Of a stretch of DNA of 64,000 nucleotides, positions 29,564 through 57,220 are shown piece by piece (the stretch's first letter is position 1; the number at the start of each line of letters is the position of its first letter). A program made the translations under genes and the position numbers. This stretch comes from Patescibacteria group bacterium (GTDB taxonomy: Bacteria > Patescibacteriota > Microgenomatia > Daviesbacterales > UBA10151): positions 913 to 64,912 of the forward strand of contig JAMCSY010000010.1 in NCBI GenBank assembly GCA_023379125.1, in the 5' to 3' direction. Under the pieces are notes generated by a model. The model was not told the DNA's origin and made no database searches. It saw nothing but the letters and a program-made list of their open reading frames with translations.

Positions 29564-29576
29564 ATTTTAAAAACTT

Positions 29577-40168: not shown

Positions 40169-41344
40169 ATGGATAGAGTACCAAGAAGCCTGACAAAGTA
40201 TCTTACATCTAATACAGCTGGTTTGTTACTGGTGATTATTTTATATGCTTTGTTCTCAGGACTGGTACTGAATTCTCTATATCCATTTCACTTAGCAACA
40301 GAGTCTTTATTAGTGTTAACTATTTTAGGAATTGCTTGGCAAATCCCATTATGGCTTAGTTACATACTTGGTTTTATTAATTTATTGTTATTATGGTTGA
40401 TTGTAAAAAAAGTATTTGGCTATAGAGTTGCTCTGTTTTGCTCATTAACTTATGCAACTTCACCGTGGATCTCATATTTAGTAGTTGGAGACTCTCTGAC
40501 AACATGGTTATTAACCATCTGGCTCATTATTTTTTATGGTTTATTCTGTTTAAGCCATAGTTTTTGGAAGATAATATTTCTTATTGCTGGCTGCATTATG
40601 TTGATTTTTAGTTCAGTGTTAATGTGGCCAGCCCTTTGTGTCTTACTAGTGACTCTTTACATTAAGAAAAATTCTTCTTTCCTTACCATACAAAATTTTC
40701 ATCTGTTGACCGCTGTTAGCCTGTTAACATTTATGGCACTTTTGCTGACTAATTATTCAATGGTTAAACATAGCCTGGGAAGCCAGTTATTAATTATCCA
40801 GAATATTAGTATTGTTAATACTGTTAATCTGCTCAGGGGTGAAGATAATCAAGCAGGTATTGGCAAACTAGGTTTTATTTTGGATAATAAGTATGCTTAT
40901 GGTGCGCTGTATTTTAGCTCGAGATTACTAGAAAATATTAATCCAGTTAACTATTTTGTCTCCAGTACTAATTTTATAAGACAATCAAACACACCTCCAA
41001 TCCTGTTTGGCTGGATAATTCCTTTAATATTGGGTATTGGAGTTTGGCAAAAGGTCTGGAAGATGACTCGTTGGTCAGTTGTTTTTGTATTGTGTCTTCT
41101 GACACCTTCTCTTGTCTCTAGTGATGGTTTCAGTATTAATAAAATTGGATTTGTCTCTCCATTGTTATTTGTAACTTGTGGTGTGGGTCTTGAACGACTA
41201 CTTAGCTTAAATAAATATCGAATATGGTTTGCACTGATCATAATAGCGATCCTTATACAGCTTGTGTTTGTCGCCAATGATGTTACTCTACGCGAAAATG
41301 TCCGTCTAGATTATTTACGTTTTGCGCAAATATCAGAAAATTAA
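40169..41344 (+). CDS. Membrane protein resembling a truncated/degenerate ArnT-like paralog (lacks the WDE...GYNAYS loop)
   Basis: ALFCSLTYATSPWISY matches ALIGAALTAISPWLIY of the downstream 41345 protein. The N-terminal catalytic loop motif and the C-terminal domain are absent. Confidence 0.4.
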   Translation: MDRVPRSLTKYLTSNTAGLLLVIILYALFSGLVLNSLYPFHLATESLLVLTILGIAWQIPLWLSYILGFINLLLLWLIVKKVFGYRVALFCSLTYATSPWISYLVVGDSLTTWLLTIWLIIFYGLFCLSHSFWKIIFLIAGCIMLIFSSVLMWPALCVLLVTLYIKKNSSFLTIQNFHLLTAVSLLTFMALLLTNYSMVKHSLGSQLLIIQNISIVNTVNLLRGEDNQAGIGKLGFILDNKYAYGALYFSSRLLENINPVNYFVSSTNFIRQSNTPPILFGWIIPLILGIGVWQKVWKMTRWSVVFVLCLLTPSLVSSDGFSINKIGFVSPLLFVTCGVGLERLLSLNKYRIWFALIIIAILIQLVFVANDVTLRENVRLDYLRFAQISEN

Positions 41345-43003
41345 ATGCATAAAAAAGAACTGTTGGTTATTATTTTCATTACTTTGGTTGGTGGTTTTTT
41401 CAGATTTTATGACTTAGCCAATAATCCTGTTTCTTTGAATGTCGACGAAGTGTCTGTGGGCTATAATGCTTATTCTTTGCTAAAAACTGGGCGAGATGAA
41501 TATGGGAATTTTCTGCCACTTTCCATTAGGTCTTTAGGGGACTATAAACCTCCGGTGTATACCTATATCACAGCTGCTTCGATCGCGATATTTGGCTTAA
41601 ATGAATGGGGTATTAGATTTCCGGCAGCTTTATTTGGTACTCTGACAATCGTCTTATTTGCATACTTTTTTTATCTACTTAGTCATAACAGAACTATCAC
41701 ACTAATTGGAGCAGCATTAACGGCAATTTCGCCATGGCTTATTTATCATAGTCGGTTTGCTCTAGAAACAAATTTATCAGTTTTCTTTGTCGTTCTAGGC
41801 TTTCTTTTATTCTTTAAGATGTTGGAAAATAAAACAAATCTTCTGGCAGTTTTAAGTGCTTTTTGTTTTGCTCTCTCAATTTATACATATCAAACTGAAA
41901 GATTGTTTACTCCACTTTTGATTACTGTTCTTTTGATATTGTATCGGCGCCAGATTAAAAGAGGACTAAGGTATCAAATAGTCAATTTTATACTTTGCTT
42001 CATTTTATTGGCTTTACCCTTCATTTTTTCTTTTGTTTTAGGGTCAGATCAGACAAGATTAGCGATGGTTAAGCTAAACAACGATATCGATTTCACCCGT
42101 AATATTATGATTAATCCATTAATACAAATGGATGGCTTCATAGCTATAATAACCAAATTACTAAGTACACAGCCACCTCTATTGTTTTTCTATTGGTTAA
42201 ACCGTACTCTATCATATCTAAGTCCAACTTTTTGGTTTTTTAATGGTTTAGGACTAGTTGGCCAAAACACTATTAATCTGGGCTTGCTTTATATTTTCGA
42301 GCTACCATTTGTTATTTTGGGAATTTATAAAATACTTGCTGGTAGATTTAGCAATAGACCGTTAATTTTTTTATGGCTACTTTTAGGACTGATTCCTTCT
42401 TCTCTAACAATTGGTCAAATGAATGGTAGGCGTATTTTAATTATGGCCCCAATGGTGATTTATATTTCAGCAATCGGTGCCAAAAGCTTAGGAGAAATAA
42501 TTCTGCAGTTAAGAAAAAGATATCGCTATCCGCTGGCAACTTTATTTAGTGGGATCATTTTATGGTCTATGTTTAGTGCAATCAACCTTTACAGCGTACA
42601 CTTTCCTCGACAAAAGGGTGAGGGATTTATGGATGGGACTAAAGAAGCTGTGCAATATATTTTACAGAATCAAAACAAATATCAAGAAATTGTCTTTGAT
42701 CCAGTTAGGGGTACAGAAGGACCATATTTAACAAACGTACCCTACCTCTATTTACTATTCTATACTCAATATGATCCTGCTTTATATCAATCTCAAGTGA
42801 AGACTCATACAAATGAAGGCTTTAGCTTCAGTAAATATACTTTTCGTCCAATTGATTGGCGAAAAGATCAAGATCAGCATAACATTTTATTTATTGGTAG
42901 TATTTGGAGTTTACCACCTAAAGATGTTCCTCAACAGGATATTCTAGATAAAATTTATATGATCAATGGGCAATTAGCCTATTTGATAGTTTCACCGAAA
43001 TAA
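41345..43003 (+). CDS. GT-C glycosyltransferase, PMT/ArnT-like (family A)
   Basis: LNVDEVSVGYNAYSLLKTGRDEYGNFLPLSIRSLGDYKPPVYTY is the canonical GT39/GT83 loop-1 motif. The protein has about 11 TM helices and a C-terminal soluble domain. Confidence 0.7.
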   Translation: MHKKELLVIIFITLVGGFFRFYDLANNPVSLNVDEVSVGYNAYSLLKTGRDEYGNFLPLSIRSLGDYKPPVYTYITAASIAIFGLNEWGIRFPAALFGTLTIVLFAYFFYLLSHNRTITLIGAALTAISPWLIYHSRFALETNLSVFFVVLGFLLFFKMLENKTNLLAVLSAFCFALSIYTYQTERLFTPLLITVLLILYRRQIKRGLRYQIVNFILCFILLALPFIFSFVLGSDQTRLAMVKLNNDIDFTRNIMINPLIQMDGFIAIITKLLSTQPPLLFFYWLNRTLSYLSPTFWFFNGLGLVGQNTINLGLLYIFELPFVILGIYKILAGRFSNRPLIFLWLLLGLIPSSLTIGQMNGRRILIMAPMVIYISAIGAKSLGEIILQLRKRYRYPLATLFSGIILWSMFSAINLYSVHFPRQKGEGFMDGTKEAVQYILQNQNKYQEIVFDPVRGTEGPYLTNVPYLYLLFYTQYDPALYQSQVKTHTNEGFSFSKYTFRPIDWRKDQDQHNILFIGSIWSLPPKDVPQQDILDKIYMINGQLAYLIVSPK

Positions 43004-43210
43004 AAATATTTCTAAGTGTCCTGAATCATCGAGGTTAGGATTTTACAATTAATGTCTTGCTTCTTGCTTTGTTTTGAAAATATTAATGTTTTCAATTTGC
43101 TGAGAGTAGAAAATTATCTACCTAAAAAGGATTCCTTTAGCCATACTAGAGTGGTTAAATCTGATCCCCTACAGATTTACTTCAAGAGAACAACTTGTTA
43201 AGATTGATCT

Positions 43211-44122
43211 GTGAAGAAAAATATCTCTGTTGTGATAAATACTCTGAATGAAGAAAAAAATATTGCTCGAGCGGTAAAATCTGTACAATCTTTCGCTACC
43301 GAAGTGATTGTTTGTGATATGTATTCTACTGATCAGACAGTAGAAATTGCTAAAAGATTAGGAGCGAAAGTCTTTTTCCACAAAAAAACGGGATTTGTTG
43401 AGCCAGCCAGAAATTTTGCAATTTCTAAGGCCAAGGGGGAATGGATTTTAATCTTAGACGCTGATGAAGTGCTTCCTAATGTGCTAGCTAAGAGACTAGA
43501 AGAAATGCTCAATAAACCAATTCTTTCCAGTTTTGTGAGTATTCCGAGAAAAAATATTATTTTTGGTAAGTGGATGAAGGCTGCTATGTGGTGGCCTGAT
43601 TATAATATACGTTTTTTTAAAAAAGGAGAAGTAATTTGGAATAATCAGATTCATAGTAATCCCACCACGCAAGCTCAGGGTTTAACCCTACCTGCCGAGG
43701 AAGATTTGGCAATTATTCATTATAACTATACCAACATAGAACAATACATCGCGCGCCTAAATCGCTATACCACAATTCAGGCACAAGAATTAGCAGGCGA
43801 GAAAATTGTTTTTAATTGGACTACCTTGTTTAGCAAGCCAGTGGAAGAGTTTTTAAGCAGGTATTTTGCCAATAAAGGTTACCAGGATGGATTACATGGT
43901 CTTGCCTTAAGTTTGCTACAGGCATTTTCTTTTGTAGTAGTATATCTGAAACTTTGGGAGATATATAAGTTTAGGGAAGAAGAGATCTCAGTTGAGCAGG
44001 TAAATCAAGAAATGAAACAAATTGCTCATGATTTTAGATACTGGTTACGCCTAGTCAGAGCTCCGAATGGTCCGATTAAAAAATTTGTCTATAAACTACG
44101 AAATAGGCTTAGTTATGAGTAA
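43211..44122 (+). CDS. GT2 glycosyltransferase (subfamily with paralogs at 44963 and 55150)
   Basis: ISVVINTLNEEKNIARAVKSV...VIVCDMYSTDQT...LDADE. Confidence 0.75.
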   Translation: MKKNISVVINTLNEEKNIARAVKSVQSFATEVIVCDMYSTDQTVEIAKRLGAKVFFHKKTGFVEPARNFAISKAKGEWILILDADEVLPNVLAKRLEEMLNKPILSSFVSIPRKNIIFGKWMKAAMWWPDYNIRFFKKGEVIWNNQIHSNPTTQAQGLTLPAEEDLAIIHYNYTNIEQYIARLNRYTTIQAQELAGEKIVFNWTTLFSKPVEEFLSRYFANKGYQDGLHGLALSLLQAFSFVVVYLKLWEIYKFREEEISVEQVNQEMKQIAHDFRYWLRLVRAPNGPIKKFVYKLRNRLSYE

Positions 44123-44966
44123 GGTTGCTGTAGTAATTCTAAATTTTAAAACGGCTCAGGAAACTTTGACGTGTTTGAAATCTGTGCAAAATTCCAACTA
44201 TCCAGAGATCGCAATCTACATTGTGGATAATAATTCTAACGACGGTTTAGCGACACAGCTACAAAATCAGCCAGGAATATTTTATATTCAATCCCAAGAA
44301 AATCTAGGCTATACCGGTGGTAATAATCTTGGCATAAAGCAAGCAGTTAAAGATGGTGCCACAGCAGTGTTGGTGCTCAATCCTGATACAATGGTGACGC
44401 CTACCTGTATCAGAGAAATGGCAAGTCAACTAGAGGATCCTGTAGTGGGTATAGTTGGACCAAAAATTTTATTCCAAGATAGACAAACCATTTGGTATGC
44501 TGGTGGAATTTTGGATCTTAAAAATGTTATCGGTCAGCACCGTGGGGTAAATGAAAAGGATAATGGTCAATATGAACAGATAGTAGAAACGGATTTTATT
44601 ACTGGAGCAGCGATGCTAATTAGAACAGCGGTTTTAGAGAAAGTTGGTTATTTTGATGATCGTTTTTTTCTCTATTATGAAGATAGTGACTTATCATATC
44701 GGGCAAAAAAAGCTGGGTTTAAACTAATTTATAACCCTGAGGCTGTTGTCTATCATGATAATGCTAAGGCAACTGGCTTAGGATCACCATTACAGGATTA
44801 TTTTATTACGCGCAATCGTTTGTTGTTTGCCTCAAAACATTTAAAATTTAGAACTCGTTTTGCGCTATTTAGAGAAGTGTTGAAAAACATTGGGATGAAG
44901 ACACGCCGATTAGCCTTATTAGATTTCTGTATGGGCAATTTTGGCAAAGGAAGTTATCCACTATGA
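44115..44966 (+). CDS. GT2 glycosyltransferase (rhamnosyl/galactosyl-transferase-like; paralog at 46842)
   Basis: VAVVILNFKTAQETLTCLKSV...YIVDNNSNDG...DSDLSYR. The ATG at 44115 overlaps the upstream stop (ATGAGTAA). Confidence 0.7.
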   Translation: MSKVAVVILNFKTAQETLTCLKSVQNSNYPEIAIYIVDNNSNDGLATQLQNQPGIFYIQSQENLGYTGGNNLGIKQAVKDGATAVLVLNPDTMVTPTCIREMASQLEDPVVGIVGPKILFQDRQTIWYAGGILDLKNVIGQHRGVNEKDNGQYEQIVETDFITGAAMLIRTAVLEKVGYFDDRFFLYYEDSDLSYRAKKAGFKLIYNPEAVVYHDNAKATGLGSPLQDYFITRNRLLFASKHLKFRTRFALFREVLKNIGMKTRRLALLDFCMGNFGKGSYPL

Positions 44967-45769
44967 TTTCAGTAATAATATTAACCAAGAATGAGGAGGA
45001 TCGTCTCCAAGCATGTATTGAATCTGTTGCTGGTTTAGCGGATGAGGTTGTTGTAGTAGATTCAGGTAGTCAAGACAAAACTGTGGAATTGGCCAAAAAG
45101 CTAGGAGCAAAAGTTTTTACTCGTTCATTTGATAATTATGTTAACCAAAAGAATTGGGCTTTTGAGAAGACAAAAGGAGACTGGGTATTTTATCTTGACG
45201 CTGACGAGAGAGTCCTTGCTGACTTAAAACAAGAAATTAATGGCTCAATTCAGTCAACCAAGTTTAGCGCTTATGCTATATCTCGCAGAAATATTATTTT
45301 CGGACAAGAAGTCAGATATGGGCCCTTTTGGCCCGATTGGATTATTAGATTAGTTAAAAGGAGCGATTTTCAAGGTTGGCAAGGAGAGGTCCATGAAACA
45401 CTCAAGTTCCGAGGTGAGTTAGGATATAGTAAGTGTTCATTGCTTCACCTGACACACCGGAACGTTGATCAAGTGATTAGCAAAAATCTTCATTGGTCAC
45501 AAATTGATGCTAAACTCCGTTTGCAGGCGCATCACCCCAAAATGTCTTCGCTCAGATTTTTGCGAATTTTAACCACAGAACTTTTTTATCAAGGTATTAC
45601 GCGTAGAGGTTTTTTTTCTGGAACTGTTGGTACAATAGATGCTCTGCTGCAAACATTTAGTCTGCTGACGACTTATATTAGACTATGGGAAATGCAACAA
45701 CCGGTCCCACTCGAACAGAAATATTCAGAAATAGATAAAAATTTGATAAAAAATAACTTTAAATATTAA
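44963..45769 (+). CDS. GT2 glycosyltransferase
   Basis: ISVIILTKNEEDRLQACIESV...VVVDSGSQDKT...LDADE. Confidence 0.75.
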   Translation: MISVIILTKNEEDRLQACIESVAGLADEVVVVDSGSQDKTVELAKKLGAKVFTRSFDNYVNQKNWAFEKTKGDWVFYLDADERVLADLKQEINGSIQSTKFSAYAISRRNIIFGQEVRYGPFWPDWIIRLVKRSDFQGWQGEVHETLKFRGELGYSKCSLLHLTHRNVDQVISKNLHWSQIDAKLRLQAHHPKMSSLRFLRILTTELFYQGITRRGFFSGTVGTIDALLQTFSLLTTYIRLWEMQQPVPLEQKYSEIDKNLIKNNFKY

Positions 45770-46845
45770 TGCGCATTGCGATTTTTACCCCTTATCTAGA
45801 TAGCTTTGGCGGTGGTGAAAGGTATATGCTGACTGCGGCTGAAGTTTTATTAAAAAATCATCAAGTTGATTTGTTGATAGATTCTCATTTGCGCACATTA
45901 AATCCTCAGCAGTTGAAAGATGATTTGGCAAAAAGACTTAATCTTCAACTTGATAGGCTCAAAGTTGTGAATGCTCCACTTGGTGCGGGAGCTAATTTTT
46001 TACAACGCTGCCTATTTTTGAGTAAGTATGATGTTTTGATTGCTTTAACTGATGGTAGTATTTTTTTCTCAACTTCCAAAAAAAGCTTTTTACATTTTCA
46101 AGTTCCATTTCAAAATCCTCATCCTCATTCACTTTGGCACCAGTTGAAGTTGCATAGTTTTAAACAAGCGATTTTTAATTCTTCTTTTACAAAGAAAATA
46201 ATTGAGACTTCTTGGCCAATTAGAGGTGAGGTGATTTATCCCCCGGTTGAAGTAGAGAAGTTTAAAATGACTAAAAAAAAGAAATATATTCTTTCAGTGG
46301 GTAGATTTTTTAGTTATCTGAAGACTAAAAAACATGAAGAAATGATTCAAACTTTTGCTAAATTATATTCTGACCAGAAAGTAAAAGGGTGGAGTTTACA
46401 TCTAGCTGGATCAATTGGGGATGGGGATATGGGATATCTTCATGAACTAAAAATTGTGGCGCAAAAATTACCTGTATATTTTTACCCTAATCTGGAATTT
46501 GATAAATTAGTCAAATTATATTCTGAGAGTGCCATCTATTGGCATGCAGCTGGATTCGCTGAAGATGATCCGACAAAAATGGAACATTTTGGGATCACCA
46601 CAGTTGAAGCGATGGCTGCAGGTTGTGCACCAGTAGTAATTAATAAAGGTGGACAAACTGAGATAGTCAAAAATGGAGAAAATGGATTCTTGTGGGACGA
46701 TTTAGAGACACTTTGTACCAGAACAATTGAGTTGATAGAAGATGCACAAGAACGACAACGATTAGCTAAAAAAGCAAGACAGAGTGCACAATTGTTTTCT
46801 AAGGAAAGCTTCTCTCACAAAATAAATGCATTAATAAACAAATGA
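45769..46845 (+). CDS. GT4 (GT-B fold) glycosyltransferase
   Basis: C-terminus EHFGITTVEAMAAGCAPVVINKGGQTEIV..GENGFL is the GT4 EX7E-region signature. Confidence 0.75.
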   Translation: MRIAIFTPYLDSFGGGERYMLTAAEVLLKNHQVDLLIDSHLRTLNPQQLKDDLAKRLNLQLDRLKVVNAPLGAGANFLQRCLFLSKYDVLIALTDGSIFFSTSKKSFLHFQVPFQNPHPHSLWHQLKLHSFKQAIFNSSFTKKIIETSWPIRGEVIYPPVEVEKFKMTKKKKYILSVGRFFSYLKTKKHEEMIQTFAKLYSDQKVKGWSLHLAGSIGDGDMGYLHELKIVAQKLPVYFYPNLEFDKLVKLYSESAIYWHAAGFAEDDPTKMEHFGITTVEAMAAGCAPVVINKGGQTEIVKNGENGFLWDDLETLCTRTIELIEDAQERQRLAKKARQSAQLFSKESFSHKINALINK

Positions 46846-47642
46846 TTAATGATGAACAGATTAGTGTGATCATTGTGACATTTAATAGTCAGGTTGCTAT
46901 TAAAAAATGTATACAAACACTACTTAGCTTTTATCCTCATTCACCGATTTATATTATTGATAATAACTCTACGGATGAGACCGTGAATATTGTTAAGAAG
47001 TTTAGCCAGGTAAGATTAATTCAATCAATGGAAAACTTGGGGTTTTCTAAGGCAAATAATCTAGCGAGTGAATCTATTCAAACAAAGTTTGTTTGTTTTC
47101 TTAATCCGGATACTGTTTTACTAAACAAGCAAAACTTAATCAACTTAGCTGAGGATTTAGAACAGAATGAAAAATTTGGTTTGGTGGGACCAAAAATTAT
47201 TCATCCAGATGGCAGAATACAAAAGACAGTTAGGAACTTGCCTACTTTACGTAATGCGTTTTTGGAATATGTCTTGAATCACCAGGGAAGTTATGATTTT
47301 TATCAGCCCAAGAGTTCTGTACTCGTAATAGTACCGAGTATTACTGGGGCAGTTATGATGCTCAAGACAGAACTATTTAGAAAAGTAGGTGGTTTTAGTG
47401 AAAAATTCTTTTTATATTATGAGGATCTTGATTTATGCCAAAAAATCGCTAATTCTAATCTTAAAATAGGGTATGATCCACAAGTGGTTATTAGTCATAT
47501 AATGGGTGCCTCGGGAAAAAAAGTAGATGTTAACCAACTCCTTATTGAATCAGCCAAAAAATATCATGGTTTAATTGAATACTACCTCATAACATTTATT
47601 ATTAGATTGGGATTGTTGATTCATCGTCACAGATTCACCTAA
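46842..47642 (+). CDS. GT2 glycosyltransferase
   Basis: ISVIIVTFNSQVAIKKCIQTL...YIIDNNSTDET. Confidence 0.7.
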   Translation: MINDEQISVIIVTFNSQVAIKKCIQTLLSFYPHSPIYIIDNNSTDETVNIVKKFSQVRLIQSMENLGFSKANNLASESIQTKFVCFLNPDTVLLNKQNLINLAEDLEQNEKFGLVGPKIIHPDGRIQKTVRNLPTLRNAFLEYVLNHQGSYDFYQPKSSVLVIVPSITGAVMMLKTELFRKVGGFSEKFFLYYEDLDLCQKIANSNLKIGYDPQVVISHIMGASGKKVDVNQLLIESAKKYHGLIEYYLITFIIRLGLLIHRHRFT

Positions 47643-47645
47643 CCA

Positions 47646-47918
47646 ATGCTTAGAGTACTTCATAAATTTTTTTTCCTCATTTTATTTTGTGCCTTTATTG
47701 TGCTACTTATATGGGGGTTGAAATATCCGCCTTTTTGTACAGCAAATCTAAACACAGAGCTTTATTCACAACTTTCATTAAATAATGGAATTAATACCTC
47801 TAGAGGTTACGCGAATGATAAAGATATGAATCCTCAAATTGCGAGAATTATTTTTAGTAAAATTTTATATCCACAAATATACATTTTAAGATGGATATCC
47901 CTGGGTTGTTACAAATGA
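47646..47918 (+). CDS. Small hypothetical membrane protein (90 aa), possibly spurious
   Basis: The ORF has a single N-terminal TM and overlaps the start of the next gene. Confidence 0.25.
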   Translation: MLRVLHKFFFLILFCAFIVLLIWGLKYPPFCTANLNTELYSQLSLNNGINTSRGYANDKDMNPQIARIIFSKILYPQIYILRWISLGCYK

Positions 47919-49600
47919 AAAAGCATTCTTTAAAGAAACAGAAATATTATCTGCTTGGTTTGCTAATTATCGTTATTTTTGGATCTTTCTTAAGACTATA
48001 TAAGATAGATCATCTTCCAATTCAACTTGGTCATGATGAGGTGACTCAACTGTATGATGCAATTTCTATTAAAGAAACTGGTAAAGATATCTATGGAGAG
48101 AAATTGCCATTTATTTTTAAGTCTGTTAATGACTTCAAACCGCCTTTTTATACTTATGCCTCTTTGTTACCACTGCTTATTTTTGGTTGGCAGGATTTAA
48201 CTATTAAAATCATTGGAGTTTTTTTTGGAATTATGATCATCCCAGCAATGTATTTTTTTACGCAACGATTATTGCTCGATCAAAAAATAGCAATTATCGC
48301 GGCTTTCCTCACGGCGATTGCTCCATTTGAAATTTTCTATTCAAGAAAAAGTTTTGAGAGTGGCGCTGGCATTTTTGCAAGTTTGCTAGGTTTTGGCTTT
48401 TTGTTAAGTTATATCAATAATAAAAGACATCGATGGTATTTTCTGGTGGGTAGTGTCATCCTAGCTTTTGGGCTTTATACCTATTTTTCTCATGCACTCA
48501 TTATTCCCATACTATATATTAGCTTCATTATTCTCTATCACCAAAAGCTAGAACTCTTCAATATAAAGTTGAGTAAATATGTTTTGTTTGGAATAGTCAG
48601 TTTTTTGCTCATAAGTTTGCCTTTAATTAGATTTATTTTTACCGATCCCAATTCGATTAACCGTTCAGAGGCAGTAATAATTATACAAGATCCTGCCCTT
48701 GGTAAAAAAATAAATGAGATTCCAACCACAGATCCAAACTTTTCTATAAAAAAAGATTTGGTAATTGCTAGATATAGTATAAATAGATATTTGAGTCAGT
48801 TTGATCCCTACTTTATTTTTGGCAACGGCTTAGACTTAACTAATACAGACCCAATTGATTCTGGATTATTGTATTTTTTCCAACTACCCTTGCTTTTAAT
48901 AGGTATTATTACAATCACTCGTAATAAGAAACTAATTTACCAAAAGCGGTTTATTATTATGTGGATTTTGATAGGAGCTATGCCGAGTGGATTAACATTT
49001 GAAGCACATAGTCCACATCGCATAATTATGGTTTTTACGATGCTTGATTTAATTAGTGCCTATGGTTTATATCAACTTTGGTTGTGGGTCTGCCGGTTCA
49101 AAAGACCACTACTAAATAGGTTATTTTTAAGTTTTATAGCAATACTTATTATCTGGAACGCTAGTTACTTTACTACTCTTTATACAATTAACTATGCCTT
49201 TGATAAATCAGAGTACTTACAATATCCACTCGCAGATGTAGCGAGGTTTGCTTGGTCGCAACATGATAATTACAATTTGATTATTTTTGATCCCACGATG
49301 GGGGAATACGCACCATTTGTGGCTACAGGTGCCTACTACTACTTAGCTTATTATGGTCACTATTCACCCTTACTAATGCAGCAAGAATTACGGTTAGGTA
49401 ATCAGAAAATTAGAGAAACACTTTTTGACAAATTTGACATCCGCGAGGTAAATTGGGGTGGTGATATGGAACTTAAAGGTGATCTGGTTATTTCTAGTCC
49501 CTGGAGTCTGTCACCGACAGGTTCATGGCACCAGAAAATAATTCATACTTTTTATTATTATGATGGCAAACCAGCTTTTTATGCTGTAGCAGTAAATTAA
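47891..49600 (+). CDS. GT-C glycosyltransferase, PMT/ArnT-like (family A)
   Basis: LGHDEVTQLYDAISIKETGKDIYGEKLPFIFKSVNDFKPPFYTY. The true start is probably MKKHSL at about 47915. Confidence 0.7.
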   Translation: MDIPGLLQMKKHSLKKQKYYLLGLLIIVIFGSFLRLYKIDHLPIQLGHDEVTQLYDAISIKETGKDIYGEKLPFIFKSVNDFKPPFYTYASLLPLLIFGWQDLTIKIIGVFFGIMIIPAMYFFTQRLLLDQKIAIIAAFLTAIAPFEIFYSRKSFESGAGIFASLLGFGFLLSYINNKRHRWYFLVGSVILAFGLYTYFSHALIIPILYISFIILYHQKLELFNIKLSKYVLFGIVSFLLISLPLIRFIFTDPNSINRSEAVIIIQDPALGKKINEIPTTDPNFSIKKDLVIARYSINRYLSQFDPYFIFGNGLDLTNTDPIDSGLLYFFQLPLLLIGIITITRNKKLIYQKRFIIMWILIGAMPSGLTFEAHSPHRIIMVFTMLDLISAYGLYQLWLWVCRFKRPLLNRLFLSFIAILIIWNASYFTTLYTINYAFDKSEYLQYPLADVARFAWSQHDNYNLIIFDPTMGEYAPFVATGAYYYLAYYGHYSPLLMQQELRLGNQKIRETLFDKFDIREVNWGGDMELKGDLVISSPWSLSPTGSWHQKIIHTFYYYDGKPAFYAVAVN

Positions 49601-49601
49601 A

Positions 49602-50339
49602 ATGGCAAAAGTCAAAGTAGTTATTGTAATGCCTGCCTATAATGCGGCAACAACTGTAAAAAATACATACCTGGAAATTCCAGCAAAATTGAGGAAACAT
49701 ATCATATTAGTAGATGACGGATCAACTGATCAGACTGTCAAGGTGGCTCAAAAACTGGGAATTAAAGTTTTTGCACATCCAGCTAACTTAGGTTATGGAG
49801 GAAATCAAAAAACCTGTTACTGGGAGGCATTAAAATTAGAGCCATCTGTAGTAGTCATGCTCCATCCTGATTATCAATATGATGCCTCCTTGATAGAGGA
49901 GCTTGTGAGACCAATACTAATAGATCGTTATGATTATATGTTTGGAAGTCGAATTCAAAATAAAAAAGGAGCCTTATTGGGAGGCATGCCTCCGATAAAA
50001 TACTATCTGAATCGGGTAGTTTGTTTAATGGAGAATGTTTTATTGGGTGTTAATTTTACTGAACATTTTTCTGGATTTCGCGCTTATTCGATTAAAGCCT
50101 TAAAACAAATTCCCTTCCAACGTTTCTCTAATGACTTTGTATTTGATCAACAAATGGAGATATCAGCGATTAGTCATAATTTAAGAATAGGCGAGATTGC
50201 AATACCAACTAGATATCACGAAAAAGCTTCCTCGATAAAATTCCTAAAAGGTAGTAAATTTATAATAGATACCTTTTGGTATGTATTCTTATACAAATTA
50301 CACCAAGCAGGTCTGATAAAATTTCCTATTTATAAGTAG
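49602..50339 (+). CDS. GT2 polyprenyl-phosphate sugar synthase-like glycosyltransferase
   Basis: VVIVMPAYNAATTV...ILVDDGSTDQT. Confidence 0.75.
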   Translation: MAKVKVVIVMPAYNAATTVKNTYLEIPAKLRKHIILVDDGSTDQTVKVAQKLGIKVFAHPANLGYGGNQKTCYWEALKLEPSVVVMLHPDYQYDASLIEELVRPILIDRYDYMFGSRIQNKKGALLGGMPPIKYYLNRVVCLMENVLLGVNFTEHFSGFRAYSIKALKQIPFQRFSNDFVFDQQMEISAISHNLRIGEIAIPTRYHEKASSIKFLKGSKFIIDTFWYVFLYKLHQAGLIKFPIYK

Positions 50340-50353
50340 TTTAATAACTAATA

Positions 50354-52003
50354 ATGAATAAAAAGAGCTTAGTTATCCTAATATTAATTTTAGTTTTGGC
50401 CTTTTTTCTTAGATATTATAAAATTACAGAAGTTCCACCTTCATTGAATTGGGATGAGACAGCGATTGGATATAACGCTTACTCTATTTTAAGAACTGGT
50501 CATGATGAATGGGGAAAGCTATTACCTATACATTTTGAGTCGTACGGAGAATATAAATTACCCTTACAGATTTATTTTTCTATTCCAGCGATTGCAATTT
50601 TTGGTTTGAATGATTTTTCTGTCCGGATTACCCCAGTTGTCTATGGAACTCTAACAATATTACTCATATTTTTATTAACAAGAGCTCTTTTTAGAAACAA
50701 CTTGATAGCACTTTCAGCAGCCTTTTTCTTGGCCGTTTCGCCATGGCATATTCAATTAACCCGTGCTTCTTTTGAATCTTCATTTTCCGTCCTTTGGGTT
50801 CTTTGGGGCATATGGTGGTTAGTGAAAGGCTTTGAGAATAAAAAATGGTGGGTTTATGCAATTATTCCACTTGCTTTAGCTATGTATACTTATAATAGCG
50901 CTCGTGTTTTTGTACCACTTTATTTATTAGCTTTATTACTAGTTTATAAAGCGGAGATATTCAAATATAAGAAAATACTGCTGATCTCCATTGTTGTATT
51001 TTTAATTATGCTGATACCGATGGTACCATATTACTTGGGTGGTAATGGCGCTTCGCGTTACAAACTGGTAAGCATTACCGATGATCCGGGCTTAGTACCA
51101 AGGATTGATCAACAACGTAATCAATCAACACTTCCTCCTTTAGTTAAAAGGTTTTTATACAACAGGGTTACTTATGTATCTTTCTATACGATCGAACATT
51201 ATTTCGCTCATTTTGCCCCTGCTTTCCTTTTTATCTCTGGTGCTCCACATAAGCAGCATAGTGTTCAGGGATTAGGTGAACTTTTCTACATACAAGCGCC
51301 ACTGATTTTATTAGGTCTATACTGGCTCTTTAAGACAAAAAATAGATTTAGATATTTACTAATTTCCTGGTTATTGATTAGTATTATCCCAGTCTCGGTT
51401 ACAAACGATAGTATTCCTCAGGCGCTCAGAACACTGATTGCTGCTCCAGTTTATCAGATCTTATCTGCCATTGGTTTGTATCAAGGTTATATGTTTTTGC
51501 GAAAAAGAAAAGCATTTTTGTTTGGTTCAGCGATAGCTCTATTATTAGTATTTGCCTGGGAATTTAATCATTATCTGTATCAGCTATTTGTGATTTATCC
51601 GGTCAGCTACTCGCGTGATTGGCAGTATGGCTATAAGCAAGTAGTTAGCTATATTCAAGATCATCAGAATCAGTATGATGAAATAGTTTTTAGCAGAGTT
51701 TATGGGGAACCATATATGTTTACATTATTTTATCTACAATATGATCCTGCTAAATATCAAAACGACCCCAATTTAGTGCGCTATGAGGGGAATAATTGGA
51801 TTTGGGTATTGAGGTTTGGTAAGTTTTATTTTCCTGATTTGGGTGATGCTGGAACAACTTTTGAGGATATCGTTAAGGAAAATCAGGGTAAAAAAATATT
51901 GTTCATTGGTAAACCAGGAGACTTCCCTTCGCAACTACCGGTGCTTTATCAAGTCAATTTCCTAAATGGTAATCCAGATTTTCAGATAGTAGAGGTAAAG
52001 TGA
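50354..52003 (+). CDS. GT-C glycosyltransferase, PMT/ArnT-like (family A; tandem 1 of 3)
   Basis: LNWDETAIGYNAYSILRTGHDEWGKLLPIHFESYGEYKLPLQIY. Confidence 0.7.
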   Translation: MNKKSLVILILILVLAFFLRYYKITEVPPSLNWDETAIGYNAYSILRTGHDEWGKLLPIHFESYGEYKLPLQIYFSIPAIAIFGLNDFSVRITPVVYGTLTILLIFLLTRALFRNNLIALSAAFFLAVSPWHIQLTRASFESSFSVLWVLWGIWWLVKGFENKKWWVYAIIPLALAMYTYNSARVFVPLYLLALLLVYKAEIFKYKKILLISIVVFLIMLIPMVPYYLGGNGASRYKLVSITDDPGLVPRIDQQRNQSTLPPLVKRFLYNRVTYVSFYTIEHYFAHFAPAFLFISGAPHKQHSVQGLGELFYIQAPLILLGLYWLFKTKNRFRYLLISWLLISIIPVSVTNDSIPQALRTLIAAPVYQILSAIGLYQGYMFLRKRKAFLFGSAIALLLVFAWEFNHYLYQLFVIYPVSYSRDWQYGYKQVVSYIQDHQNQYDEIVFSRVYGEPYMFTLFYLQYDPAKYQNDPNLVRYEGNNWIWVLRFGKFYFPDLGDAGTTFEDIVKENQGKKILFIGKPGDFPSQLPVLYQVNFLNGNPDFQIVEVK

Positions 52004-53538
52004 AAAAAAATATTTTATGGCTTGTCTTAATATCTATTTTTTTTCTAGCTACAAGGCTATATCAAATTACTGACAACCCCCCCTCTTTATATTGGGATGA
52101 AGCATCGATAGGGTACAATGCTTACTCTGTAATTACTACTGGACGTGACGAATGGGGAAAAGTTCTACCCATTCATTTTCGGGCATTTGGTGAGTTTAAA
52201 CTACCAGTCTATATTTACTCAGTAGCCTTAGCCGAGGTTATCCTTGGGGTAAATGATCTTGCTGTTAGGTTTCCGGCAATAATATATTCTTTGGGAACTC
52301 TGCTGATTACTTACTTCATTGCTAAAAAAATATCTGGAAAAGATAGTATTGGATTGTTATCAGCATTTTTCATAAGTATATCTAAATGGTTATTTGTTTT
52401 TTCTCGAACAGGTTATGAAGCAAACGCCGGAGTTTTTTTCTATTTGGGAGGATTATACTTTTTGTTACTGAGCAAGAAAAGTAATAACTTTCTTATTGTT
52501 TCAATATTGTCTTTTGCGATCACTCTCTATTGTTATAACAGTTTTCGAATTATTACGCCTATAACTCTACTAGTCATTATCACATATCTAATCTTTAAGC
52601 TGAAAAAACAGGTACTTAATTTTCCAAAGCAACTATCAGTATTGATCGGTATACTGATTTTAGCCAGTATCCCACTGATTAGTTTTTACGTAAAAGGTGA
52701 AGGGTTGATTCGTTTTACTGATGTGAGTGTAGATACTCATCAAGGCTTAGTAAGTTTCACAAAACAATTTATTGTAAACTACACCAGCCATTTTACACCA
52801 CAGTTTTTATTGCTGACTGGGGATGTTAACAGTCGCAGCCAACAACCTGGTTTTGGTCAAATATACCTGCTGGATGTAGTTCTATTCATTTTAGGCATAT
52901 TGTATATTAAACAGAAAGAGAGTTGGCAATCAGCCATCCCTTTGCTGGTGCTTCTTATTGCTCCCATTCCAGCAAGTTTAACAAAGGAATCACCCCATGC
53001 GCTACGTTCGATCATTGCCGCTCCGGCGATCGTTTTACTTGTAACTTTTGGGGTCGATTTTTTATCAAATTTCCCAATGCGTAAAGCCTTGATTGTGTTG
53101 ATAGTAACATGTGATTTGGTGCTATTTGGCCAATATTATTATACTTTCGTTAACCAATACTCTTTGCATAATGCTGGCAATTGGCAATATGGATACAAAG
53201 AAATATTTACCAAATACCAGTCAGAGTTTCCTAATTATCAGCAAATTGTTGTCTCTGATTACCTAGGCAACCCTTATATTTTTGCCCTCTGGTATCTAAA
53301 ATATGATCCACGATCTTATTTAGCTACTGTCCAATATAACGCAGTCAGTGATTGGGGCTTTTCCAAGGTAGCTGAGTTTGGCAAGTTTAGATTTGAACCA
53401 ATCAATCTAAGCTTGTCATTGTCTGGAAAGGCTTTGATTTTTGCCTCACCTCAAGATAAGATAAATAAATACCAGCAACGAGGAGTAATTGAAAATCCAG
53501 ATGGAACACAAGTTTTTAAAGTTTACCAATCAGACTAA
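52000..53538 (+). CDS. GT-C glycosyltransferase, PMT/ArnT-like (family A; tandem 2 of 3)
   Basis: LYWDEASIGYNAYSVITTGRDEWGKVLPIHFRAFGEFKLPVYIY. The start overlaps the upstream gene by 4 nt. Confidence 0.7.
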   Translation: MKKNILWLVLISIFFLATRLYQITDNPPSLYWDEASIGYNAYSVITTGRDEWGKVLPIHFRAFGEFKLPVYIYSVALAEVILGVNDLAVRFPAIIYSLGTLLITYFIAKKISGKDSIGLLSAFFISISKWLFVFSRTGYEANAGVFFYLGGLYFLLLSKKSNNFLIVSILSFAITLYCYNSFRIITPITLLVIITYLIFKLKKQVLNFPKQLSVLIGILILASIPLISFYVKGEGLIRFTDVSVDTHQGLVSFTKQFIVNYTSHFTPQFLLLTGDVNSRSQQPGFGQIYLLDVVLFILGILYIKQKESWQSAIPLLVLLIAPIPASLTKESPHALRSIIAAPAIVLLVTFGVDFLSNFPMRKALIVLIVTCDLVLFGQYYYTFVNQYSLHNAGNWQYGYKEIFTKYQSEFPNYQQIVVSDYLGNPYIFALWYLKYDPRSYLATVQYNAVSDWGFSKVAEFGKFRFEPINLSLSLSGKALIFASPQDKINKYQQRGVIENPDGTQVFKVYQSD

Positions 53539-55144
53539 TAAAACTCATTGGTCAATTTACCTGCTTTTTATTTTTGTTATTATTATTGCCATTTTTTTAA
53601 GATTTTACAAACTCGATCAAATTCCACCATCACTAGATTGGGATGAAGTAGCTGCTGGATATAATGCTTATACTATAGCTAATTGGGGCCAGGATGAATG
53701 GGGTAATAAATTTCCTTTGACTTTTCATTCTTTCGGTGACGATAAAAGCCCAATACATATTTATGTTACTGCTATTTTTGTTAAACTTTTTGGTTTATCT
53801 GATCTTGTAACAAGATCTTCATCTGCTTTTTTTGGGGCACTCAATGTTATTATTATCTTTTTTCTAGCTAATGTTTTGTTTGGTAATAAAAGCATCGGTC
53901 TTTTTGCAGCACTATTTTTAGCAATTTCTCCTTATAATTTGCAATTTTCGCGTTTTAATCATGAAGCAAACTACGCTCTGTTTTTCATGATGTTGGGACT
54001 CTATTTAGTCTTACTTAGTCTGCATAAAAAACCATATTTACTGCCTTTGGCAGTTATCTCCTTTGGGCTCAGCATGCTTTCTTATCACTCAGGCAAGGTA
54101 GTTGTGCCTGGGATGATACTATTGCTTGTAGTCTTATTCTGGAAAAAACTAATTCAGGTTCAAAAATATGCATTGATTTCACTGGCCATTTTTGTGGGGA
54201 TTGTTATGTTGTACTTAACTAATCGACAACTCCTGGGTGGAGCACGATTACAACAACTACAAATCCCTTCAGATAAGGTTTTAACTAGCCAGCTTTACTT
54301 GCAAACTCACAATCAATTGTTGGGTAAAGTTAATGTGATTTTTGATCATTATCTTACACATTTTTCTTGGGAGTATTTATTTGTTAGTGGTGATGCTAAT
54401 CCTCGTCACTCAATCCAAACCGTTGGTGAGTTTTATCAGGTAGATATCGTTTTGATCGTTTTAGGATTGTTAGCGATGCTCCTTTTTCGCACTAGAGGGA
54501 GTGTACTGGTTTTAGCTTGGCTTTTGCTTGCACCCTTACCAGCAGCAGTTGTGGGTAGTGCCAGTGATGGACCGCATGCTGGAAGAGCTCTTTTCATGAT
54601 GGGGAGTTGGCAGATCATCACTGCGTTTGGTCTTAGCTCTTTGATCAAATTATTTAAAAAGCCACTTGTTCAGGGATTAGTCCTATGTGTTGTTTTGGTA
54701 GTTCTCGGCTGGCAATTTAAATTATATATTTATGATTATTATCATAGTTATGCCAAAAAGTACGCAATAGAATGGCAATATGGAATGAAACAAATTGTCA
54801 GTTTTGTAAAAGCTAATCCGCAATATGATACTGTCTATATGACCGATGTTCGTTCTCAGCCTTATATTTTCTTCCTTTATTATTTGAAAACTCCTTTACC
54901 AGAATTTAGAAATAGTGTGATTTATAATCAATCTCATAGTGCTCCTTCTAATTTAGTTACTTCTTTTGGTAAATATCATTTTGGGGATTGGGATCCGATT
55001 GAGAGTAAACCAATCTCGGGAGTGCTTTATATTGTTGGTCCAAGTAATTATGATGGTTTAAGATACAAGAGCCAATTTGATGTTAAAAGATTGGTTAGGT
55101 TTCCTAATAAAGATGAGGCTTTTTATATAGTCTCGGCATTGTAA
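53489..55144 (+). CDS. GT-C glycosyltransferase, PMT/ArnT-like (family A; tandem 3 of 3)
   Basis: LDWDEVAAGYNAYTIANWGQDEWGNKFPLTFHSFGDDKSPIHIY. The start is uncertain; the listed ORF overlaps the upstream gene by 50 nt. Confidence 0.65.
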   Translation: MKIQMEHKFLKFTNQTNKTHWSIYLLFIFVIIIAIFLRFYKLDQIPPSLDWDEVAAGYNAYTIANWGQDEWGNKFPLTFHSFGDDKSPIHIYVTAIFVKLFGLSDLVTRSSSAFFGALNVIIIFFLANVLFGNKSIGLFAALFLAISPYNLQFSRFNHEANYALFFMMLGLYLVLLSLHKKPYLLPLAVISFGLSMLSYHSGKVVVPGMILLLVVLFWKKLIQVQKYALISLAIFVGIVMLYLTNRQLLGGARLQQLQIPSDKVLTSQLYLQTHNQLLGKVNVIFDHYLTHFSWEYLFVSGDANPRHSIQTVGEFYQVDIVLIVLGLLAMLLFRTRGSVLVLAWLLLAPLPAAVVGSASDGPHAGRALFMMGSWQIITAFGLSSLIKLFKKPLVQGLVLCVVLVVLGWQFKLYIYDYYHSYAKKYAIEWQYGMKQIVSFVKANPQYDTVYMTDVRSQPYIFFLYYLKTPLPEFRNSVIYNQSHSAPSNLVTSFGKYHFGDWDPIESKPISGVLYIVGPSNYDGLRYKSQFDVKRLVRFPNKDEAFYIVSAL

Positions 55145-55149
55145 CATTT

Positions 55150-56013
55150 ATGAGTAAGATTTCGGTAGTCTTAGCAACATATAACGAGGGAAGTAATCTT
55201 AAAGAATGTTTGAGTTCAGTTAAAGATATTGCTGCAGAGATTATTATTGTTGATGGCGGTTCTTCTGATCAAACTTTACATATTGCGCGAGAATTTGGGG
55301 CGCAAATTACACAAACAGATAACCCACCAATTTTTCATATTAACAAGCAAAAGGCTTTGACAAAGGCAAAGCATGCTTGGATTTTACAACTAGATGCTGA
55401 TGAGAGGGTGACTCCTCGATTAGCCCAGGAGATTGAAAGGGTAACTGAGATGAGTCGGTCAGAACTTGAGGAATATCAGCGAAAACTACCACAGAAAAAA
55501 TTATTTATGCGTCACCAACTCTTAATTGAGGAACGGGATGGTATTATTGGTAAACAACAAGGTCCATATACGGCTTTTTTTATGCCGAGGCTCAATTATT
55601 TCTTAGGTAAGTATCTTCGTTTTGGTGGTGTTTACCCTGATGGTGTGATTAGACTGGTTAAAAAAGATCACGCCCACTTTCCTTGTCAAAATGTCCATGA
55701 ACAAATTTCCATTGATGGCCGGGTAGGTTGGCTAAGCAATGATTTATTGCACATTTCAGATCCAACCTTTGAGCGATACTTACAAAGAAATAGTCGATAT
55801 ATTGATTTAATTGCTGCCGAGTTAAAAGATCAACATGTTGGTAAGAATCCAATTCAACTGATTAATTATTTTTTACTAAAACCTGTTGTATGGTTTATGC
55901 TCACTGTTATTAGGCATAAAGGGATTTTGGATGGTTTTCCTGGAGTTACATTTTCTTTTTTCTCAGCTTTAAGATTTCCACGAGCATATTTCAGATATCT
56001 AAAAAATAAATGA
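55150..56013 (+). CDS. GT2 glycosyltransferase
   Basis: ISVVLATYNEGSNLKECLSSV...IIVDGGSSDQT...LDADE. Confidence 0.75.
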   Translation: MSKISVVLATYNEGSNLKECLSSVKDIAAEIIIVDGGSSDQTLHIAREFGAQITQTDNPPIFHINKQKALTKAKHAWILQLDADERVTPRLAQEIERVTEMSRSELEEYQRKLPQKKLFMRHQLLIEERDGIIGKQQGPYTAFFMPRLNYFLGKYLRFGGVYPDGVIRLVKKDHAHFPCQNVHEQISIDGRVGWLSNDLLHISDPTFERYLQRNSRYIDLIAAELKDQHVGKNPIQLINYFLLKPVVWFMLTVIRHKGILDGFPGVTFSFFSALRFPRAYFRYLKNK

Positions 56014-57077
56014 TTAAAATTGCTTTCGATGTTAGTCCACTACAAGCAGGCCATCAAACTAGAGGAGTAGGCTTCTATATTCAGAACTTACTTCAGCAAC
56101 TAAAAAAAGATTCCCGAGTAAAAGTTGTAGAATTTGATAATCTTTCTCAAGTCAAGCGAGCAGATTTAGTCCATTACCCATTCTTTGATTTTTTCAAAGC
56201 AAGCTTACCCTTGTATAAAAAATATCCAACAGTCTTAACCATTCATGATGTAACACCATTACTTTTCCCTCAACGTTATCCCGCAGGGGTCAGAGGATTA
56301 ATTAATCTCCTTAGACAAAAACTAGCTTTAACCAATATTGATATGGTTATAACTGATTCGGAATCATCTCGCTCTGATATAATCAAAATACTAGGAATAA
56401 AAGAGGATATTGTGCAATCGATATATCTGGCTGCTGGAAGTGATTTTCAAATACTCCGTGATGCAAAATTCCTTAAGAAGATTAAAACGAAATATAGTCT
56501 ACCAGATAGATTTGTAGTATATACAGGAAATGTTAATTGGAATAAAAATATACTCAATTTAGCAAAAGGCTGTTTAGAATCTGATCTTGATTTAGTAATA
56601 ATAGGTAAAAGCTTTACTCAAAAATACAACCTAGATCATCCAGAACTGCGTTCCTTTGCCCGATTTATCGAAGAATATGCTGATAATCCACGAATTCATT
56701 TACTAGGTTTTGTAGAGACAACAGATTTAGTTGGAATTATTAATTTAGCAAACGTAGGATTATTACCTTCATTTTATGAAGGTTTTGGTTTGCCGATTTT
56801 AGAATTTCAAGCATGTGGTCTACCAGTTGTTACTGCTAATACAGCCTCAATGCCTGAGATAGCCGGTCAGGCGGCAATGTTAGTTGATCCTTATCAACCT
56901 TTGGAAATTACTCAGGCCATTAATGATGTTATGCAAAATAATGATCTGCGGAAAGAACTGGTTGAGCTTGGTTTGAAAAATATCCAGCGTTTTTCTTGGT
57001 CGCAGTGTGCAGATCAGACTATTCAAGTTTATAAGAAAATTATTAATGGTAATACCTCTTATCCTTTTTTTGTATAA
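56010..57077 (+). CDS. GT4 (GT-B fold) glycosyltransferase
   Basis: YEGFGLPILEFQACGLPVVTANTASMPEIAG is the GT4 C-terminal motif. Confidence 0.75.
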   Translation: MIKIAFDVSPLQAGHQTRGVGFYIQNLLQQLKKDSRVKVVEFDNLSQVKRADLVHYPFFDFFKASLPLYKKYPTVLTIHDVTPLLFPQRYPAGVRGLINLLRQKLALTNIDMVITDSESSRSDIIKILGIKEDIVQSIYLAAGSDFQILRDAKFLKKIKTKYSLPDRFVVYTGNVNWNKNILNLAKGCLESDLDLVIIGKSFTQKYNLDHPELRSFARFIEEYADNPRIHLLGFVETTDLVGIINLANVGLLPSFYEGFGLPILEFQACGLPVVTANTASMPEIAGQAAMLVDPYQPLEITQAINDVMQNNDLRKELVELGLKNIQRFSWSQCADQTIQVYKKIINGNTSYPFFV

Positions 57078-57220
57078 AAATACATATGCTAGATCCGCTT
57101 GATTTATAAAATTATGAATTGATTGCAGTTAATATATCGAAGACCTGATCTACAAATTAAGAGAGAAGAACCCTTTCTAGAAAAATGTCCGATATGCTCG
57201 TTATTATATCGTGACCAATA

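Follow-up and report, generated by a model that had tools for sequence, protein, structure and literature searches.

Tandem GT-C glycosyltransferase paralogs at the probable core of an envelope-glycan island in a Microgenomates bacterium

What use does an uncultured, ultra-small bacterium have for five related membrane glycosyltransferases (GTs), three of them encoded head to tail? The question is raised by a 64,000-nucleotide stretch of DNA (contig JAMCSY010000010.1 of assembly GCA_023379125.1; the whole stretch is called the window below) from a Patescibacteria group bacterium of the Microgenomatia, that is, a member of the Microgenomates within the Candidate Phyla Radiation (CPR), whose members have very small genomes and attach to other cells or depend on them. 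A first-pass annotation of the window had called the five proteins ArnT/PMT-like and had paired them with neighbouring GT2 enzymes as donor synthases. We refer to genes by their start coordinates, and to the five paralogs as A (50354), B (52000), C (53489), D (47891) and E (41345), A, B and C forming the tandem triad. Our analysis suggests that the region is probably the core of an envelope-glycan island of a monoderm Microgenomates bacterium, in which the five GT-C enzymes would carry out stepwise extracytoplasmic glycosylation of a surface glycoconjugate. New here are a distinct and very large GT-C clade, a six-gene cassette and a GT-C partner protein that lacks loop 1; literature searches found no paper on these CPR/Patescibacteria GT-C arrays.

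Five paralogs of a large GT-C clade

The array at 40169-58438 is long and has hardly any gaps between its genes, all on the + strand, and the open reading frame (ORF) coordinates first given for the five paralogs and for the gene just upstream of them, 40169, were reproduced exactly (Table 1). All five proteins pass the gathering score of the Pfam model PMT_2 (PF13231; 26.1 bits), D only marginally with 26.9 bits, and three of them (E, A and C) also pass the Pfam PMT model. The paralogs are 26-33% identical to each other over ~500 residues, and a profile built from the five matches 6028 database clusters (50% identity) at E<=1e-30, which together exclude a chance resemblance. The family call of the first-pass annotation was therefore sound in a broad form: these are GT-C proteins of the PMT_2 superfamily, and the DE loop is intact in all five. 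As judged from the profile matches, the PMT_2-type clade to which they belong is distinct and very large. Proteins A, 55150 and 40169 each have a 100% identical NCBI entry from a 'Patescibacteria group bacterium', all on an 84-kb contig; the entry for A is annotated as a 'glycosyltransferase family 39 protein'.

We analysed loop 1 of the five proteins, which had been said to share the motif (W/V)DE..(I/V)GYNAY(S/T)...G.DE(W/Y)G...P. In the alignment the motif is found in E (VDEVSVGYNAYS..GRDEYG), A (WDETAIGYNAYS..GHDEWG), B (WDEASIGYNAYS..GRDEWG) and C (WDEVAAGYNAYT..GQDEWG), the last with one deviation (A for I/V before G), but not in D (HDEVTQLYDAISIKETGKDIYG), which has a conserved variant of its own, HDE..Q(L/I)YDAI...DIYG. 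Orthologues of A, B and C keep GYNAY...DE(W/Y)G, and those of D keep (L/I/A)YDAI...D(I/V)YG; of 27 D-type ORFs, 11 have LYDAI/DIYG itself and another 7 have a close variant of it. The DE pair withstood careful alignment, being invariant in the five proteins and in their orthologues. In A numbering, the residues invariant in all five are D34, E35, D51, K68, R137, E141, R235 and R359. Loop 1 is also the part best conserved between the paralogs, with 45-51% identity versus 23-28% for the membrane core, the loop between transmembrane (TM) helices 7 and 8, and the C-terminal domain. In solved GT-C structures the catalytic Asp lies just after TM1 and the donors are lipid-linked (PMC11127046). In the paralogs, the DE pair of loop 1 could act as a catalytic base or a metal site, and the donor phosphate might be held by K68, R137, R235 and R359.

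Another motif, WQYG, stands directly behind the last TM helix of all three triad proteins; the residue before it is Asp in A, Asn in B and Glu in C. It reads DWQYG in 80 of 88 A-type ORFs, and most A and C orthologues have (D/E)WQYG; D and E are without it. The position recalls WWDYG of STT3, AglB and PglB, presumably the place where oligosaccharyltransferases (OSTs) carry that motif. This correspondence is putative, because no PDB sequence matched a profile built from the C-terminal parts of the triad proteins.

Among PDB sequences, the five-paralog profile had one significant match, to ArnT (5EZM/5F15; E 1e-6), which begins where loop 1 ends, continues across the next TM helices and places K68 opposite the lysine in 'EKPP' of ArnT; a search of the PDB with the single sequence of A gave no match. 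The AlphaFold2 model of A, built on 35 sequences (predicted local distance difference test score, pLDDT, 89; predicted TM-score, pTM, 0.88), has ~11 TM helices. As predicted, TM1 (residues 3-21) is followed by a structured loop 1 with juxtamembrane helices, which holds D34 and E35; the TM7-TM8 loop is short and helical (residues 229-313, 85 residues), and the chain ends in a soluble alpha/beta domain of 130 residues. Foldseek matched this model to AglB, STT3A, ArnT, PglB, Pmt4, ALG12/9, DPY19 and EmbB, all with probability 1.00, and Pmt1/2 were also among the matches. With so many matches at probability 1.00 and TM-scores near 0.5, we describe the fold as GT-C with no single closest family.

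To judge from their phylogeny, the five paralogs are ancient and non-redundant. In a neighbour-joining tree of proteins from the window and three related genomes, A, B, C and D form four separate clades, each paralog together with its orthologues, and identity within these clades is 62, 46, 49 and 48%, respectively, as opposed to 23-33% between clades, A being the most conserved paralog. Since each paralog has its own clade across genomes, the earlier suggestion that they differ in sugar or acceptor specificity is plausible. Relatives of A that are 53-65% identical occur in 155 species-representative genomes. Where the 80 fetched loci are informatively named, the names are almost all Daviesbacteria, Woesebacteria, Shapirobacteria or Microgenomates, with one locus titled Parcubacteria. 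Many contigs that bear the cassette described below (loci L009, L014, L015, L017, L018 and others) are titled 'uncultured Gammaproteobacteria bacterium', apparently a placeholder or wrong label.

The six-gene cassette, gene 40169 and the neighbouring GT2 genes

The genes of the triad overlap. A and B share 4 nt (GTGA), and AGAGG, inside the upstream gene, precedes the GTG start by 5 nt; B and C overlap by 50 nt if C starts at TTG 53489 (GAGGAG 3 nt upstream), or by 38 nt if it starts at ATG 53501. The overlapping junctions noted in the window recur in relatives. We compared the window proteins with the ORFs found in 86 fetched loci and counted cassettes in the 70 non-redundant species-level loci that extend 7.5 kb or more beyond A on its downstream side. 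In 57 of the 70, two paralogs and then a 55150-type GT2 come directly after A; among these 57, 31 offer a start with a 4-nt NTGA overlap at the A/B junction and 26 offer one at the B/C junction. The full order, A-B-C-GT2-GT4-PIG-V-like GT-C, is found in 46 of the 70 loci. This six-gene cassette is kept in most Microgenomates genomes examined. According to the gene calls of three relatives, a Wzx flippase and another GT2 lie behind the PIG-V-like gene. Four Shapirobacteria-labelled loci (L078, L079, L080 and L081) have A (45-47% identical) and B and no C orthologue, and two of these loci carry rhamnosyltransferase-like GT2s in the interval from B to the 55150-type GT2.

Gene 40169 abuts E with zero gap and had been taken for a degenerate copy without the catalytic loop. 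The loop is indeed missing, but the gene is conserved, together with an E orthologue, in at least 11 other genomes. Protein 40169 has no Pfam match, and a word-based homologue search returned only 40169 itself. With blastp, we found homologues of 361-404 amino acids (aa) and 23-33% identity in the fetched loci. In 11 other genomes a homologue lies directly 5' of the E orthologue, overlapping it by 4 nt in 8 of the 11 cases; E orthologues (39-46% identical, DE loop intact) are always behind a 40169-type gene. The alignment of the single 40169 sequence with the paralog profile (columns 100-390) is colinear but weak; that of the family of 12 sequences covers TM2-TM11 (columns 100-432) with an hhalign probability of 98.4% (E 6.5e-15). 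In all members of this family TM1 runs straight into the TM2 region, ~55 residues with DE, GYNAY, DEWG and K68 being absent, and the proteins end before the C-terminal domain. By this alignment, 40169 is a conserved, catalytically dead GT-C derivative that travels with the E-type paralog. Because it is conserved and always beside an E orthologue, to which it appears translationally coupled, it is most likely a non-catalytic partner of E and not debris. No description of such a pseudo-GT-C partner was found in the literature searched, and the 40169/41345 pair may exemplify a pseudo-enzyme partner in the GT-C superfamily.

We asked which of the neighbouring GT2 genes could supply donors. Six genes matching PF00535 (43211, 44067, 44963, 46842, 49602 and 55150) are interleaved with the paralogs, as first described; they are, however, of three kinds, and only 49602 resembles a donor synthase. 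Its best NCBIfam matches, none of which reaches its cut-off, are AglJ (68.6 bits; cut-off 325), PpgS (57.5 bits) and Dol-P-hexose transferase. Orthologues share 66-78% identity with it and mostly stand behind a GT-C gene. A 49602-type GT2 lies within 10 kb upstream of A in 23 loci; a D orthologue precedes it within 60 nt in 10 of these, and another GT-C paralog does so in most of the remaining 13. Of the repeated ArnC+ArnT-like modules proposed at first, one candidate is supported, formed by D and 49602; genes 55150, 43211 and 44963 are not ArnC/GtrB/Dpm1-like.

These three genes are mutual paralogs, whose best NCBIfam match is TIGR04283, followed by SunS or glucosyl-3-phosphoglycerate synthase. 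Protein 55150, the one of the trio that was searched against PDB sequences, matched GmaR best and SunS also. The top Foldseek matches of its AlphaFold2 model (pLDDT 89.6) are SunS, ThuS, WrtF and TarS, with ArnC at rank 24. On the strength of the TIGR04283/SunS-type matches and of the SunS-like fold predicted for 55150, we rejected all three as polyprenyl-phosphate-sugar synthases. The source of one 55150 orthologue calls it a 'beta 1,4 glucosyltransferase'. The remaining kind is rhamnosyltransferase-like. For one of its two genes, the longest ORF (44067-44966, + strand) overlaps the upstream gene by 56 nt, and the ATG at 44115 is a likelier start than 44067, because the GT2 domain opens at MSKVAVVILNF.

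Proposed function and its alternatives

We propose that each GT-C would transfer one sugar from a polyprenyl-phosphate-sugar, at the outer face of the cytoplasmic membrane, onto a growing surface glycoconjugate. As the paralogs appear ancient and non-redundant, A, B and C would perform three different and probably consecutive transfers, maybe as a complex. Translational coupling would ensure co-expression of the triad with the SunS/WaaE-type GT2, the GT4 and the PIG-V-like protein, a fourth GT-C. A lipid-linked precursor may be built by the cytoplasmic GT2 and GT4 enzymes and exported by the Wzx flippase. Donors could come from the Dpm1/PpgS-like GT2s, namely 49602 and, beyond 40169-58438, the Dpm1/ArnC/PpgS-like 14542, 18673, 20932 and 61033. 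Protein 40169 would be a dead, truncated GT-C that partners E.

Several points weigh against this proposal. Foldseek cannot separate OST-, ArnT- and PMT-like kin of A, the TM-scores being ~0.5 and the E-values similar. Protein 49602 has no predicted TM helix, unlike GtrB and ArnC, falls below every NCBIfam cut-off, and gave no match at E<=0.01 in a single-sequence search of the PDB. Neither a free-standing GtrA-type flippase nor an initiating phosphoglycosyl transferase was seen among the window ORFs of at least 150 aa. Promoter and terminator scans gave counts no higher than in shuffled sequence and so do not inform the operon limits. Family, fold, motif conservation, orthology, synteny and junction overlaps are shown by the data. 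We infer the site of action from topology, a complex of A, B and C purely from gene order, and the donor type from the fold and the alignment of K68 to ArnT; the order of the steps and the acceptor are proposals as well. A bolder version, in which A, B and C are an obligate hetero-oligomeric GT-C machine, the core assembly complex of an envelope glycan or glycoprotein with a possible OST-like step at (D/E)WQYG, and in which 40169-type proteins are dedicated dead subunits or regulators of E-type enzymes, seems to us unlikely.

The arrangement can be compared with several known systems. In Gtr-type three-component systems, a GT2 polyprenyl-phosphate-sugar synthase lies beside a GT-C that acts extracytoplasmically (PMC11127046), and monoderms have GT2 + GT-C operons such as CsbB-YfhO and YkcC-YkcB (PMC5836110). 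The D-49602 pair, which is conserved in relatives, has the layout of GtrA/B/C, CsbB-YfhO, YkcC-YkcB and GtlA-GtlB. The differences from these systems are that 49602 lacks both C-terminal TM helices, that GtrA has no gene of its own and is present solely as a domain of the 14542 fusion, that each donor synthase is matched by many GT-C genes, and that no Dpm1-like GT2 adjoins the triad downstream. The triad shares its layout of three homologous GT-C genes with the mycobacterial emb operon (EmbC, EmbA and EmbB), whose products use a polyprenyl-phosphate-sugar donor for wall glycans and include an EmbA-EmbB heterodimer (PMC7341804). The Emb proteins, however, have ~1100 aa, carbohydrate-binding modules and 40-46% mutual identity, whereas those of the triad have ~550 aa and 30-33% mutual identity and belong to another sequence family. 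There is also a likeness to archaeal Agl systems: the Agl23 model TIGR03663 is the best NCBIfam match of four of the five paralogs, as AglJ is of 49602, and the island has a MOP flippase. Yet the scores are far below the cut-offs (40-55 bits versus 126.25 for Agl23), and no STT3/AglB match was found among the window proteins.

A possible but unlikely alternative is that the paralogs act as PMT-type protein O-glycosyltransferases, in which case they would use a polyprenyl-phosphate-sugar donor to modify Ser/Thr directly on proteins that are secreted or displayed at the surface (S-layer, pilins), each paralog with its own substrates. The DE pair directly after TM1, at the start of loop 1, the ~11 modelled TM helices, the Pfam PMT matches of E, A and C, and the presence of Pmt4 and Pmt1/2 among the fold matches are consistent with this, and eukaryotic PMTs act as paralog dimers (the Pmt1-Pmt2 complex and the Pmt4 homodimer are PDB entries). 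In CPR bacteria, the nature of whose envelope has been described as unclear, it has been suggested that the abundant glycosyltransferases are used for glycoproteins or for a glycosylated S-layer (PMC5220378). However, the Pmt equivalog NF058602 gives E 28.8 bits against a cut-off of 800 and does not match the other four, Pfam finds no MIR or other domain in the TM7-TM8 loop of any of the five, and the proteins have a C-terminal soluble domain instead. In addition, they are part of a multi-GT cassette, and the fixed GT2, GT4, PIG-V-like GT-C and Wzx neighbours fit stepwise glycan assembly better. Quite unlikely, in our view, is an OST-like role for one member of the triad, most likely A, which would transfer a Wzx-flipped lipid-linked oligosaccharide en bloc to a protein or wall polymer, with B, C and the PIG-V-like protein trimming or extending it. 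In its favour are the top fold matches of the A model (AglB, STT3A and PglB, E 4e-9 to 1e-7), the (D/E)WQYG right after the last TM helix, the strong conservation of A, and the cytoplasmic GTs of the cassette with a Wzx in relatives. But the fold score of ArnT is about equal to those of the OSTs and ArnT is the sole significant PDB sequence match, the Pfam STT3 model matches no window protein, the motif is (D/E/N)WQYG and not WWDYG, and, as B and C carry WQYG too, it does not single out A.

A bona fide ArnT function, modifying lipid A or lipopolysaccharide (LPS) with aminoarabinose or a related sugar with the help of ArnC-type synthases, we regard as extremely improbable. The paralogs share with ArnT (GT83) the GT-C fold, a C-terminal extracytoplasmic soluble domain and, with ArnC, the logic of a donor made by a GT2; ArnT is their best PDB sequence match, and some sources name orthologues '4-amino-4-deoxy-L-arabinose transferase-like'. 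Against this, the ArnT equivalog PRK13279 gives two paralogs 18.3 and 17.2 bits with a cut-off of 567 and does not match the other three, the model of A has ~11 TM helices instead of 13 and a DE pair in loop 1, and most of the neighbouring GT2s, those adjacent to the triad included, are not ArnC-like. Moreover, CPR bacteria have been placed in a monoderm clade, and one studied CPR genome is without genes for lipid A/LPS (10.1101/2021.05.31.446380; PMC5220378). We therefore rejected the lipid A function. The ArnT and Pmt equivalogs both fail to recognize the paralogs; the labels 'ArnT-like', which is misleading, and 'GT39' need correction, since the roles that they imply in lipid A modification and protein mannosylation are not supported. 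A recent tandem duplication that left redundant or decaying copies without separate functions has an equally negligible chance. Three homologous genes head to tail beside the truncated 40169 might suggest it, but identities of 23-33% between paralogs against 46-62% between orthologues, the same gene order in most Microgenomates genomes, catalytic residues intact in all five, and the conservation of 40169 with its neighbour contradict it, and it was rejected. If the paralogs do build a surface glycan stepwise, as we propose, the occurrence of the cassette, with its four GT-Cs and two cytoplasmic glycosyltransferases, in most Microgenomates genomes examined would mark that glycan as important to them.

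The surrounding glycan island

From ~11.5 kb (11561) to 64000, more than 50 kb of the window consists nearly entirely of genes for glycan biosynthesis. They encode a nucleotidyl transferase, a GDP-mannose-dehydratase-like enzyme, an epimerase, thirteen GT2 or GT4 proteins, the Wzx flippase and ~19 other polytopic membrane proteins, among them two more PMT_2, four YfhO/PTPS_related-like, a GT87-like and a PIG-V-like protein. Gene 14542, the sole fusion of a GT2 with a GtrA/DPMS domain in the window, is a candidate membrane-anchored polyprenyl-phosphate-sugar synthase.

Table 1. Features of the array and of the island around it
Feature	Position	Strand	Length, matches and remarks
GT2 fused to GtrA/DPMS TM domain	14542-15735	+	PF00535 + PF04138; best NCBIfam AglJ, ArnC, PgfS
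MOP/Wzx-type flippase	31286-32788	+	Polysacc_synt_3 174 bits; MOP flippase 138 bits
GT-C-derived protein without loop 1 and C-terminal domain	40169-41344	+	391 aa; ~9 TM helices
GT-C paralog E	41345-43003	+	552 aa; intact DE loop; PMT_2 47.4 bits; PMT 45.1 bits
GT2, SunS/WaaE-like, 55150 paralog	43211-44122	+	PF00535 80 bits; best NCBIfam TIGR04283, SunS; 31% identical to 55150
GT2, rhamnosyltransferase-like	44115-44966	+	Glycos_transf_2, Glyco_tranf_2_3; TIGR01556 84.9 bits (below cut-off)
GT2, SunS/WaaE-like, 55150 paralog	44963-45769	+	PF00535 76 bits; best NCBIfam TIGR04283, pattern as 55150
GT4 (GT-B fold), cytoplasmic	45769-46845	+	Glycos_transf_1 83.8 bits
GT2, rhamnosyltransferase-like	46842-47642	+	Pfam and NCBIfam matches
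GT-C paralog D	47891-49600	+	569 aa; variant loop-1 motif; PMT_2 26.9 bits
Dpm1/PpgS/AglJ-like GT2, candidate polyprenyl-phosphate-sugar synthase	49602-50339	+	245 aa
GT-C paralog A	50354-52003	+	549 aa; opens conserved triad; PMT_2 49.9 bits; PMT 27.0 bits
WQYG site of A	51620-51634	+	Residues 423-427; WQYG and the next residue
GT-C paralog B	52000-53538	+	512 aa; GTG start overlapping A stop; PMT_2 32.8 bits
WQYG site of B	53182-53196	+	Residues 395-399; WQYG and the next residue
GT-C paralog C	53489-55144	+	551 aa; start TTG 53489 or ATG 53501; PMT_2 57.8 bits; PMT 23.4 bits
WQYG site of C	54773-54787	+	Residues 429-433; WQYG and the next residue
GT2, SunS/WaaE type, cassette gene 4	55150-56013	+	287 aa; orthologues 65-70% identical
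GT4, cassette gene 5	56010-57077	+	Glycos_transf_1 82.7 bits; synteny
PIG-V-like (Mannosyl_trans2) GT-C, cassette gene 6	57221-58438	+	PF04188 29.1 bits (cut-off 22.4); ~9 TM helices; synteny

Further genes of the island also have counterparts in relatives. A second tandem GT-C array lies at 23200-31274 (+ strand), with PTPS_related/YfhO-like genes at 23200, 24881, 26592 and 29577 and a gene for a 6-TM protein of no known family at 28295; loci of the Woesebacteria type keep the order of this array and continue with GT87-like, 37506-type and 38169-type genes, the last on the - strand. Gene 32785-36255 (+ strand) encodes a protein of 1156 aa with ~13 TM helices and an N-terminal extracytoplasmic region of ~480 aa, which has only a weak TgpA_N match and is 35-45% identical to the products of genes in related loci. 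At E<=5, Pfam gave no match for 28295, 32785, 37506, 58535 and 59956. The only minus-strand gene of the island, 38169-40139, encodes a protein of 656 aa with 11 TM helices, for which Pfam gave no match at E<=5 either and hhalign found no relation to the paralog profile. Its homologues, mostly 44-52% identical, lie in opposite orientation beside GT87-like and 37506-type genes in many relatives, and on the + strand in some. On the 5' side of the island, the window encodes an M23 peptidase with a PcsB-like coiled coil, FtsX and an FtsE-like ABC ATPase (4962-7836, - strand), and a peptide-chain release factor (8363-9454). Related contigs are ~0.8-1.1 Mb long.

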